This document shows positions 5,415 through 7,345 of a DNA stretch of 13,516 bases, one piece after another. How positions within the stretch are numbered: position 1 is the stretch's first letter; every line of letters begins with the position of its first letter. The stretch lies in the IMG/VR virus record IMGVR_UViG_2541047764_000010, one strand, 5' to 3'. The notes below the pieces were generated by a model. That model did no database searches. It saw nothing but the letters and a program-made list of their open reading frames with translations, and was not told the DNA's origin. The position numbers and the translations under genes are program-made. This stretch comes from a virus. Its lineage: Duplodnaviria > Heunggongvirae > Uroviricota > Caudoviricetes.

Positions 5415-5831
5415 TTATACCTCTGAATCAATATCAACCTGGTGGTGAGCAATGGTTTCAACCATGTACCGGATGTGTTCTGCCATGCGCTCCTGAAACT
5501 CAACATCGTCATCAAACGCACGGGTAATGGCTTTTTTGCTGGCCCCGTGGCGTTGCAAATGATCGATGCATAGCGATTCAAACAGGTGCTGGGGCAGGCC
5601 TTTTTCCATGTCGTCTGCCAGTTCTGCCTCTTTCTCTTCACGGGCGATCTGCTGGTAGTGACGCGCCCAGCTCTGAGCCTCAAGACGATCCTGAATGTAA
5701 TAAGCGTTCATGGCTGAACTCCTGAAATAGCTGTGAAAATATCGCCCGCGAAATGCCGGGCTGATTAGGAAAACAGGAAAGGGGGTTAGTGAATGCTTTT
5801 GCTTGATCTCAGTTTCAGTATTAATATCCAT
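5415..5831 (-). CDS. gam: Lambda Gam (RecBCD inhibitor), 138-aa long form
   Basis: The translation [61 protein letters not shown]... matches lambda Gam. It overlaps kil by 46 bp, as in lambda. Confidence 0.95.
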
Positions 5832-5929
5832 TTTTTATAAGCGTCGACGGCCTCACGAAACATCTTTTCATCGCCAATAAAAGTGGCGATAGTGAATTTA
5901 GTCTGGATAGCCATAAGTGTTTGATCCAT
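5786..5929 (-). CDS. kil: Kil (host-killing FtsZ inhibitor), 47 aa
   Basis: An internal ATG at 5929 gives [47 protein letters not shown], matching lambda Kil. The 89-aa ORF in the track is an artefactual upstream extension. Confidence 0.9.
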
Positions 5930-6062
5930 TTTTTGGGACTCCTGGCTGATTAAGTATGTCGATAAGGCGTTTCCATCCGTCACGTAATTTACGGGTGATT
6001 CGTTCAAGTAAAGATTCGGAAGGGCAGCCAGCAACAGGCCACCCTGCAATGGCATATTGCAT
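5898..6062 (-). CDS. cIII: cIII (protects cII from FtsH), 54 aa
   Basis: Hand translation of the minus strand from the ATG at 6062 gives [54 protein letters not shown], matching lambda cIII. An AAGGAG Shine-Dalgarno lies upstream. It overlaps kil by 32 nt in another frame and is absent from the ORF track. Confidence 0.9.
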   Translation of the reverse strand: MQYAIAGWPVAGCPSESLLERITRKLRDGWKRLIDILNQPGVPKNGSNTYGYPD

Positions 6063-6134
6063 GGTGTGCTCCTTATTTATACATAACGAAAAACGCCTCG
6101 AGTGAAGCGTTATTGGTATGCGGTAACGCCGCGC

Positions 6135-6503
6135 TCAGGCGGCTTTGATAGTCATATCATCTGAATCAAATATTCCTGATGTATCGATATCGGTAATTCT
6201 TATTCCTTCGCTACCATCCATTGGAGGCCATCCTTCCTGACCATTTCCATCATTCCAGTCGAACTCACACACAACACCATATGCATTTAAGTCGCTTGAA
6301 ATTGCTATAAGCAGAGCATGTTGCGCCAGCATGATTAATACAGCATTTAATACAGAGCCGTGTTTATTGAGTCGGTATTCAGAGTCTGACCAGAAATTAT
6401 TAATCTGGTGAAGTTTTTCCTCTGTCATTACGTCATGGTCGATTTCAATTTCTATTGATGCTTTCCAGTCGTAATCAATGATGTATTTTTTGATGTTTGA
6501 CAT
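6135..6503 (-). CDS. ea10: Ea10-like early protein (122 aa; lambda Ea10 is a reported ssDNA-binding protein)
   Basis: A 122-aa ORF immediately upstream of cIII in the lambda order. Size and sequence match my recollection of lambda Ea10. Confidence 0.7.
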   Translation of the reverse strand: MSNIKKYIIDYDWKASIEIEIDHDVMTEEKLHQINNFWSDSEYRLNKHGSVLNAVLIMLAQHALLIAISSDLNAYGVVCEFDWNDGNGQEGWPPMDGSEGIRITDIDTSGIFDSDDMTIKAA

Positions 6504-6523
6504 CTATTCATATCCTCACAGAT

Positions 6524-6549
6524 AAAAAATCGCCCTCACATTGGAGGGC
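6524..6549 (-). terminator. Candidate rho-independent terminator (minus strand) upstream of ea10, in a tL-like position
   Basis: On the minus strand, a GCCCUC-caaugu-GAGGGC hairpin (perfect 6-bp stem, plus 6532..6549) is followed by GAUUUUUUAU (plus A-run 6524..6530). Confidence 0.6.
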
Positions 6550-6763
6550 AAAGAAGATTTCCAATAATCAGAACAAGTCGGCTCCTGTTTAGTTACGAGC
6601 GACATTGCTCAGTGTATTCACTCGTTGGAATGAATACACAGTGCAGTGTTTATTAGTATGCCTGTCTTTTAACCACATCAGGCTCGGTGGTTCTCGTGTA
6701 CCCCTACAGCGAGAAATCGGATAAACTCTATTCACCCCTACAGAGAGCAAAAGAGAAACGCCG

Positions 6764-7345
6764 ATGAACAACTCATGGTGGCAGGAACTAATGCATTTTT
6801 TCCTGCAAGGAATGACACTTAAACAGTTGATTCATATGCTAATCATCCTGATCATATTGATTATTGTTATGCCTGTAAGCGTAAAAGAATGGATAAACCT
6901 GCATAATCCAGAAATCCTTCCTCATTACTGGATGTATTACATCCTGTTGTTTTGCGTTAGCTATGTGCTTAACGGCGTTGTTAATTCCGCTTATCACGCT
7001 GTGACTGTAAGAATTGAGATATTCGCTGCTCAGAAGCGCAAATCTAAAGAAGAGAAATACGTGCAAGATTTGTTTGATTCGTTAACTCTTGGAGAAAGAG
7101 CGTATTTGGCATTCGCTGTAGCCGCTAATAACCAGCTAAAGACAGAAAAGGGAAGCCCTGAAGCAATCTCATTGCTCGAAAAAGGGCTTCTTATTCGGGT
7201 ACCTTCTGCTACTGGATATCCTGAAATCGACCGTTTTGTTATCCCGGAACGCTATAGAAATGAGTGCTACATTAGGTTTGCTGGGAAGAAAGACAGTCTT
7301 ATGGATGAACTTATCGCTCAGGATAAGCATGGCAAAAACAAGTAA
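6764..7345 (+). CDS. sieB: Superinfection exclusion protein B (SieB)
   Basis: A 193-aa ORF on the opposite strand to the pL operon, between ea10 and N, with a hydrophobic N-terminal segment (LIHMLIILIILIIVMPV) and AT-rich composition. Size, position and sequence match lambda/P22 SieB as I recall. Confidence 0.75.
   Translation: MNNSWWQELMHFFLQGMTLKQLIHMLIILIILIIVMPVSVKEWINLHNPEILPHYWMYYILLFCVSYVLNGVVNSAYHAVTVRIEIFAAQKRKSKEEKYVQDLFDSLTLGERAYLAFAVAANNQLKTEKGSPEAISLLEKGLLIRVPSATGYPEIDRFVIPERYRNECYIRFAGKKDSLMDELIAQDKHGKNK

Follow-up and report, generated by a model that had tools for sequence, protein, structure and literature searches.

A lambdoid ea10–sieB control region without the orf28–ral cassette, with predicted PreS, sieB promoter and sas elements

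The 260-bp gap between ea10 and sieB (positions 6504-6763) is most probably an ordinary lambdoid ea10–sieB control region that lacks the orf28+ral cassette and carries PreS/tL2a, the sieB promoter and a sas overlap; we put the probability of this reading, which draws on sequence comparison, at about 85%. The window, by which we mean the whole stretch of 13,516 nucleotides that was analyzed, is a lambdoid early region, with int, xis, exo, bet, gam, kil, cIII and ea10 on one side of the gap and sieB, N, the immunity region, O, P, ren and nin on the other. According to the original prediction, the position of lambda ral is occupied instead by a structured non-coding segment containing a terminator hairpin, an inverted repeat and a direct repeat. 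All three features were found where they had been placed, but the segment itself consists of the DNA found on the left and right of ral in lambda, brought together, and every one of the listed features coexists with ral in lambda. Our assignments are based on sequence identity, positions and predicted folds, and the production and action of RNAs in this phage are inferred by homology to lambda and P22. The region consists of elements that are already known, and nothing in the finding as first stated is new. A module composed of a conserved block, a hairpin and a repeat is the single part lacking a prior description, and it is the one lead worth following.

Flanking genes and the ral-less junction

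The gap is bounded by two recognizable genes, and the following features define its edges and the site of the cassette:

6135-6503, minus strand: ea10 (ssb-like, DUF2528), from the ORF list; left neighbor of the 260-bp gap
6504-6522, minus strand: ea10 leader and Shine-Dalgarno sequence (UCUGUGAGGAUAUGAAUAG then AUG), read from the sequence; begins just past the tL2a U-tract
6655-6659, no strand assigned: junction at the site of the 336-bp orf28+ral cassette of lambda, from alignment; only 5 nt cannot be aligned
6764-7345, plus strand: sieB, 193 aa, Pfam SieB PF14163 (3.2e-25)

The Ea10 ORF matches Pfam DUF2528 at 1.8e-47, and ea10 of the window aligned to lambda ea10 (33536-33904); in lambda imm434, the ribosome-binding site of ea10 is annotated at the equivalent place. 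Within sieB, an in-frame ATG at 6836 aligned with the esc start of P22, whose esc coding sequence begins 72 nt into sieB (BK000583), and was taken as the internal esc start. The arrangement is common. Positions 6404-6863 are 100% identical to wild lambda-like phages (1H12, Lambda_2E9, ev087 and others) and 99.6% identical to the Stx1 phage VT1-Sakai, which is among the 12 phage records matching at 99.6-100% identity.

Beyond ea10, toward cIII, a second intrinsic terminator lies at 6092-6111 on the minus strand, which we take to be lambda tL2b. It is accompanied by the cIII thermoregulator Lambda_thermo (6017-6075, minus strand, 88.5 bits), the sole Rfam family in the whole window at the gathering score; both are standard lambda features. 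The thermoregulator sits at the start of a 54-aa minus-strand ORF (5898..6062) resembling lambda CIII. In the RefSeq record of 1H12 (NC_049947.1), this CIII-like ORF is unannotated and an overlapping 89-aa ORF (5786..6055) is labeled 'Kil', which is probably a mis-annotation.

The window was aligned with lambda (J02459) and with ev017, a close relative that carries ral. Window positions 6480-6654 correspond to lambda 33881-34055, and positions ~6660-6743 to lambda ~34397-34475. Between these two stretches, lambda and ev017 hold an additional 336 bp (lambda 34056-34391) comprising orf28 and ral, together with 31 bp beyond the ral stop codon and 34 bp before the orf28 start. HK629 is ral-less at the equivalent place, with a junction variant that differs by one base (TTTATTCGTATGCC), and among 5426 complete E. 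coli genomes, 338 contain the exact 40-mer that spans the junction of the window. As for the origin of the junction, a plain deletion of lambda by microhomology was considered and does not fit the sequences (window TTTATTAGTATGCC versus lambda TTTATTCTGTTATTTATGCC). Homology to other phages often stops at ~6520 (HK140, phiSTEC801), at 6644 (933W) or at 6654 (many others); these sites, at the terminator and at the end of the hairpin module, serve as boundaries in the mosaic.

Given that the terminator hairpin, the inverted repeat and both copies of the direct repeat flank ral in lambda, the segment does not stand "instead of" ral, and on this alignment it reads as the remainder of an ordinary ea10–sieB control region where an optional ral cassette is absent. 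The view implied by the original prediction, namely that a distinct structured non-coding element or new RNA occupies the ral slot as a functional substitute for ral, is consistent with a segment that is non-coding, folds better than shuffled sequences on the minus strand (6775..6504, z -4.0) and matches no Rfam family. It is nevertheless very improbable and is contradicted by the alignment, as all but ~5 junction nucleotides align to DNA beside ral in lambda, so that nothing has been gained for ral, and the 98.9%-identical relatives ev017, ev207 and PhiR57_1 keep identical flanks plus ral. The predicted lack of a coding sequence and of any Ral-like ORF was borne out by tblastn and Pfam: no homologs of Ral (66 aa) or orf28 were detected by tblastn across the whole window (the best value, E 0.096 over 16 aa, came from outside the gap), and none of the five small ORFs in 6504-6763 matched Pfam. 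That the gap encodes a small protein is even less credible. A 60-aa ORF (6589..6771, minus strand) does exist; however, it starts with TTG, has neither a Pfam match nor an evident ribosome-binding site, overlaps both the 5' end of PreS and the sas region, and crosses the junction, so the 336-bp cassette interrupts it in lambda, ev017 and P22.

The repeats themselves are mildly non-random. When 6504-6763 was shuffled 2000 times with dinucleotides preserved, direct repeats of 10 nt or more appeared in 2.3% of the shuffles, and perfect inverted repeats of 9 nt or more with a loop of 3-12 nt in 0.85%. Each is thus modestly unlikely alone, and most of the weight comes from conservation in lambda, P22 and Rac. 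The folding check proposed with the original prediction was run on both strands, and the inverted repeat was steadier on the minus strand. The accompanying Rfam check matched no family in 6504-6763, where a search with E up to 10 returned only sub-threshold chance matches (RyhB, 17.5 bits; S15, 15.4 bits); Rfam has no family for PreS or for sas.

PreS, tL2a and the sieB promoter region

Two of the readings originally offered for the segment, a sieB promoter and a small RNA, agree with elements that are already known: the former matches a promoter mapped in P22 and annotated in its record (BK000583), and the latter corresponds to a homolog of PreS (LPR1) that ends at the predicted terminator hairpin. 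The features concerned are as follows:

6523-6610, minus strand: predicted PreS (LPR1) homolog, 88 nt, identical to lambda at 87/88 nt
6523-6551, minus strand: tL2a intrinsic terminator, the 3' end of PreS; stem 6551..6530, U-tract 6529..6523
6558-6575, minus strand: PreS seed core UGUUCUGAUUAUUGGAAA, the 18 nt deleted in the lpr1-delta-seed mutant (primers P970/P971)
6612-6639, minus strand: 12-bp hairpin with a CAAC loop, originally seen as a 9-bp inverted repeat; 1 nt upstream of the PreS 5' end, from folding
6697-6727, plus strand: predicted sieB promoter with -10 TAAACT at 6722-6727, by homology to the P22 annotation; sequence identical
6734-6763, plus strand: predicted sieB transcription start A6734 and 30-nt leader; BK000583 position 29727 maps to 6734
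6659-6768, minus strand: sas homolog, antisense to the sieB start codon, leader and promoter; 107/111 nt identical to P22A-sas

In the preprint by Silverman et al. (bioRxiv 10.1101/2024.10.31.621285), LPR1 is renamed PreS and its 3' end corresponds to tL2a. Lambda PreS is described there as species of ~88 and ~68 nt that are present only in the lytic cycle and bind Hfq. Its seed pairs with the leader of host dnaN, which opens the ribosome-binding site and raises DnaN; in addition, PreS represses alaS and aids phage DNA replication. We set the ends of PreS in the window (GAGCAATGTCGCTCGTAACT...GAGGGCGATTTTTTA) by primers P1103/P1104 and P810 from Table S5 of that preprint, and the 5' end at 6610 is the one used by its authors. 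The sole difference from lambda is one base in the terminator loop, and the seed core is unchanged at 18/18 nt. PreS nucleotides 36-46 and 51-62 (11 + 12 nt) are perfectly complementary to the dnaA-dnaN leader contained in primers P825/P1150. The predicted RNA lies on the pL strand with its 3' end (6523) 19 nt before the ea10 ATG, and it folds at -28.9 kcal/mol (z -3.85). Every sequence-level mark by which PreS would be recognized is therefore present in this putative homolog. The same 88-mer occurs in 2231 of 5426 complete E. coli genomes.

The hairpin originally placed at 6524-6549 has both the A-run and the GC-rich stem expected of an intrinsic terminator on the minus strand. The terminator scan returned 8 pairs and a 6-nt loop followed by TTTTTTA, and the fold reached -12.9 kcal/mol (z -4.8). 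We identify it as tL2a; this is a pL-operon terminator of the ordinary intrinsic kind and provides PreS with an Hfq-type 3' end, that is, a GC-rich stem plus poly-U. The original suggestion of an RNA element that governs read-through from pL is speculative. Because the ea10 Shine-Dalgarno sequence directly follows the U-tract, ea10 depends on read-through of tL2a.

The perfect inverted repeat GTGTATTCA/TGAATACAC at 6612-6639 was likewise present as described, and on the minus strand it lengthens to 12 contiguous pairs (-14.2 kcal/mol, z -7.1; -11.6 kcal/mol on the plus strand). This hairpin and PreS travel together in lambda, 933W, 434, HK75 and HK629 despite a differing upstream gene (ral, L0079 or nun). 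Additionally, the homology arm of the full-deletion primer P969 in the PreS preprint stops just beyond the hairpin. Within the pL transcript, the hairpin probably marks a boundary of processing or stability. In HK022 (NC_002166.1, ~27657), an IS903 insertion splits the 12-bp hairpin and the PreS side is gone, so intact PreS is absent from HK022 at this position.

On the other side of the junction, from 6659 on, the window is ~95-99% identical to P22, running into sieB. The P22 record BK000583 annotates the sieB promoter at 29690-29720 and a 'sieB RNA start site' at 29727, which places the predicted start on the first base of direct-repeat copy 2. The predicted leader is unstructured (6734-6763, z -0.3). 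The -35 element of P22 is poor (TGTACC), and our promoter scan did not flag the sieB promoter. Ranade and Poteete reportedly identified the lambda sieB promoter in 1993 by homology to the P22 promoter. The scan did return a minus-strand promoter at 6879..6851; it was considered as a sas promoter and rejected, as its RNA would cover the esc start too.

P22 sas is a 127-nt RNA whose sequence was obtained by RNA-seq in a 2026 small-RNA survey (Table 2, PMC13397905), and it shifts translation from SieB to Esc (PMC12197685). The comparison in the feature list was made between the first 111 nt of the 127-nt P22A-sas sequence and window positions 6768..6659 on the minus strand. Since the junction falls within the last 17 nt of P22 sas, the 3' end of any sas-like RNA in the window must differ from that of P22. 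No entry for a lambda sieB-antisense RNA was found in the supplements of bioRxiv 10.1101/2024.10.31.621285. By homology, the gene, the promoter and the sequence of the window would all belong to the sieB/esc/sas type of P22.

A conserved block, hairpin and repeat beside the junction

The part of the region without a prior description comprises a block, a hairpin and a repeat:

6660-6690, no strand assigned: 31-nt conserved block GCCTGTCTTTTAACCACATCAGGCTCGGTGG; two helices, GCCTG/CAGGC and CCAC/GTGG, interleave within it
6691-6715, no strand assigned: hairpin TTCTCG-TGTACCCCTACAG-CGAGAA, adjoining the block; its loop contains direct-repeat copy 1
6700-6709, no strand assigned: direct-repeat copy 1, ACCCCTACAG, within the hairpin loop and over the -35 region
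6734-6743, no strand assigned: direct-repeat copy 2, ACCCCTACAG, the first 10 nt of the predicted sieB mRNA

The direct repeat agrees in sequence and position with what had been noticed at first, and the same architecture recurs widely. At least 120 IMG/VR contigs contain the block (GCCTGTCTTTTNACCACNTCAGGCTCGGTGG), where it precedes about 50 small ORFs that are unrelated to one another (our loci L008-L138). The block is followed at the same position in related loci by a hairpin with at least nine stem versions, all of them fully complementary; examples are TCCTTTTA/TAAAAGGA, TACTGG/CCAGTA, TTCTTGG/CCAAGAA and TTCTCG/CGAGAA. These stems were found sequence by sequence. Applied to the block plus hairpin, MAFFT and RNAalifold missed the hairpin, since its stems do not line up in alignment columns. 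In the short form of the module, the hairpin leads directly into a Shine-Dalgarno sequence and ATG. In the long form, found in lambda, P22, the window, HK629, Rac and Klebsiella phages, the loop sequence recurs 32-35 bp downstream, at the transcription start. The two copies co-vary across three motif families (CCCCTACAG, CCCCAACA and TTCCACAGTCAAA); the joint-change families listed for the long-form loci are ACCCCTACAG, TCCCCAACA... and TTCCACAGTCAAA. In shuffled controls, a match of at least 8 nt between loop and start appeared in only 2% of cases.

Both helices of the block show compensatory changes. The second changes from CCAC/GTGG to CCGC/GCGG in four loci, and the first from GCCTG/CAGGC to GCCCGG/CCGGGC in Rac of E. 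coli K-12 and at least 60 similar contigs. As the two helices interleave, a pseudoknot is suggested. Single-step variants with a G-U wobble are split between the strands, with three contexts pointing to the plus strand and two to the minus strand: GCTTG/CAGGC and GCCTG/CGGGC pair on the plus strand only, and GCCCAG/CCGGGC pairs on the minus strand only. This asymmetry yields no decision on the strand of either the hairpin or the block. The block region is thermodynamically unremarkable (z -0.15 to -0.44). The block is absent from Rfam, and in the literature searched its sequence is quoted only as part of P22 sas. As a sigma-70 or sigma-54 promoter of a leftward RNA, the block gave, by eye, weak matches (7/12) or a spacing off by one, and no LexA, IHF, CRP or DnaA site fits its invariant positions, again by eye. 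In some prophage contigs (L047, with blocks at ~2921 and ~3708, and L084), the block occurs twice at a distance of ~0.8 kb, and each copy precedes a small ORF of its own; the pairs resemble tandem cassettes, and in one copy the first helix is broken (TACTG in place of GCCTG).

The reading that we favor, tentatively, is that the block, hairpin and repeat together make up the structured 3' domain of sas-type antisense RNAs, a general class cut from pL transcripts. P22 sas, as defined by RNA-seq, covers exactly the start codon, repeat 2, the -10 element, the hairpin and the block, and it is this span that led us to the reading. The breadth of the ORFs that follow the block, the co-variation of the hairpin stems, that of the loop with the mRNA 5' end, and the compensatory changes in both block helices all point the same way, and the minus strand is the one that is always transcribed, from pL. 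Under this reading, the hairpin loop (CUGUAGGGGU), being complementary to the first 10 nt of the sense mRNA, may allow fast pairing between loop and 5' end; the pseudoknot-like block of 31 nt may possibly stabilize the RNA end; and many prophages might, on induction, silence accessory genes on the opposite strand by means of this module. The divided wobble evidence on the strand and the unexceptional folding of the block stand against it, as does the short form, in which GGTGGTATNCT resembles an extended -10 element. The block could accordingly be a plus-strand promoter, with the extended -10 look TGgTATNCT in the short form, or it could be a conserved linker that favors module exchange.

A protein-based explanation for the repeat seems unlikely. 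The two ACCCCTACAG copies coincide with the -35 and +1 of the promoter mapped in P22, keep a constant spacing of 32-35 bp and change jointly in three families, as would be expected of an operator through which a DNA-binding regulator controls the sieB promoter. However, there is no known regulator, and the same type of repeat precedes unrelated genes (lambda sieB, P22-type sieB and an HK620p16-like ORF), so that no linked protein co-varies with it. Moreover, the loop that contains copy 1 belongs to a hairpin with many compensatory stem versions, which points to RNA, and the repeats could also have arisen by duplication of a promoter-proximal segment. Returning to the sas-type reading, it is conceivable, though doubtful, that 6657-6743 represents one copy of an undescribed RNA control module widespread in enterobacterial prophages, made up of the block, a hairpin with a variable stem and a loop matching the mRNA, of which P22 sas would be the sole studied member.

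Predicted working of the region and comparison with known systems

In lysogeny, only the plus-strand sieB promoter would be active. It would drive synthesis of the exclusion protein SieB, with some of its inhibitor, Esc, made from the internal start. Once pL fires, the leftward transcript would run antisense through sieB and give a sas-type RNA over the sieB start and leader. If this RNA acts as in P22, translation of SieB would be blocked and that of Esc spared, so that the lytically growing phage would escape its own exclusion. The pL transcript would then pass the 12-bp hairpin and yield PreS at tL2a, and N-modified polymerase would continue past tL2a, allowing ea10 to be translated from the read-through transcripts. 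PreS itself would be expected to act in trans, via Hfq, on host dnaN and alaS.

In ral-less lambdoid phages, of which VT1-Sakai is one and which occur as prophages in about 6% of complete E. coli genomes, PreS, tL2a, the sieB promoter and the sas region are retained intact. These elements are unannotated in the records inspected, and annotators could therefore add them. If the block, hairpin and repeat prove to be a general antisense switch, the module would let pL transcription silence varied prophage genes by loop-to-5'-end antisense pairing. It would thereby explain how many prophage exclusion and accessory genes are shut off when a phage goes lytic, and it would constitute a new Rfam family.

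In IS10, the loop of the antisense RNA-OUT pairs with the 5' end of the RNA-IN mRNA. The module resembles this system in presenting, in an antisense hairpin, a loop complementary to the extreme 5' end of its target mRNA. The loop in the window differs in being a second, displaced copy, 34 nt off the true antisense position, and the window has no transposase context; the likeness serves as a working analogy.

Relative to the sieB/esc/sas system of P22, the window has the same -10 element, the same start base and the same internal esc ATG, along with the 107/111-nt match over the sas stretch. The P22 RNA runs on into the region upstream of ral, whereas in the window the junction and the PreS hairpin replace the last 17 nt of the 127-nt species; the hosts also differ, being E. 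coli for the window and Salmonella for P22. Compared with lambda PreS, the predicted homolog differs in what precedes the hairpin, which is ral in lambda and, after 20 nt, the sieB-antisense/sas region in the window. One terminator-loop base also differs. The strand, the site just upstream of ea10, the seed, the terminator and the upstream hairpin are shared, at 87/88 nt.

The early-left operons of other prophages offer a further parallel. DicF (Qin), KilS (Rac) and STnc100 have no sequence similarity to PreS and, where their targets are known, differ in these too; like PreS, however, they lie on the pL-type strand between a sieB-type gene and the genes on the kil/cIII side. In Rac (NC_000913.3, 1418223-1418670), RefSeq places the sRNA kilS (b4833) between kilR and sieB, and an Rfam E-value scan gave a DicF-like match inside it (39 bits) and an adjoining STnc100-like match (28 bits). 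Rac sieB is preceded by a divergent block with a compensated stem and by the same hairpin and repeat, and kilS and the STnc100-like sequence sit just past this variant block. In short-type prophages, STnc100 (RF02076) starts 11 nt past the block on the pL-type strand (L008, 3445-3667, minus strand; L009, 3043-3265, minus strand). STnc100 thus occupies the slot that PreS holds in lambda-type phages, and this position looks like a hot spot for embedded sRNAs.
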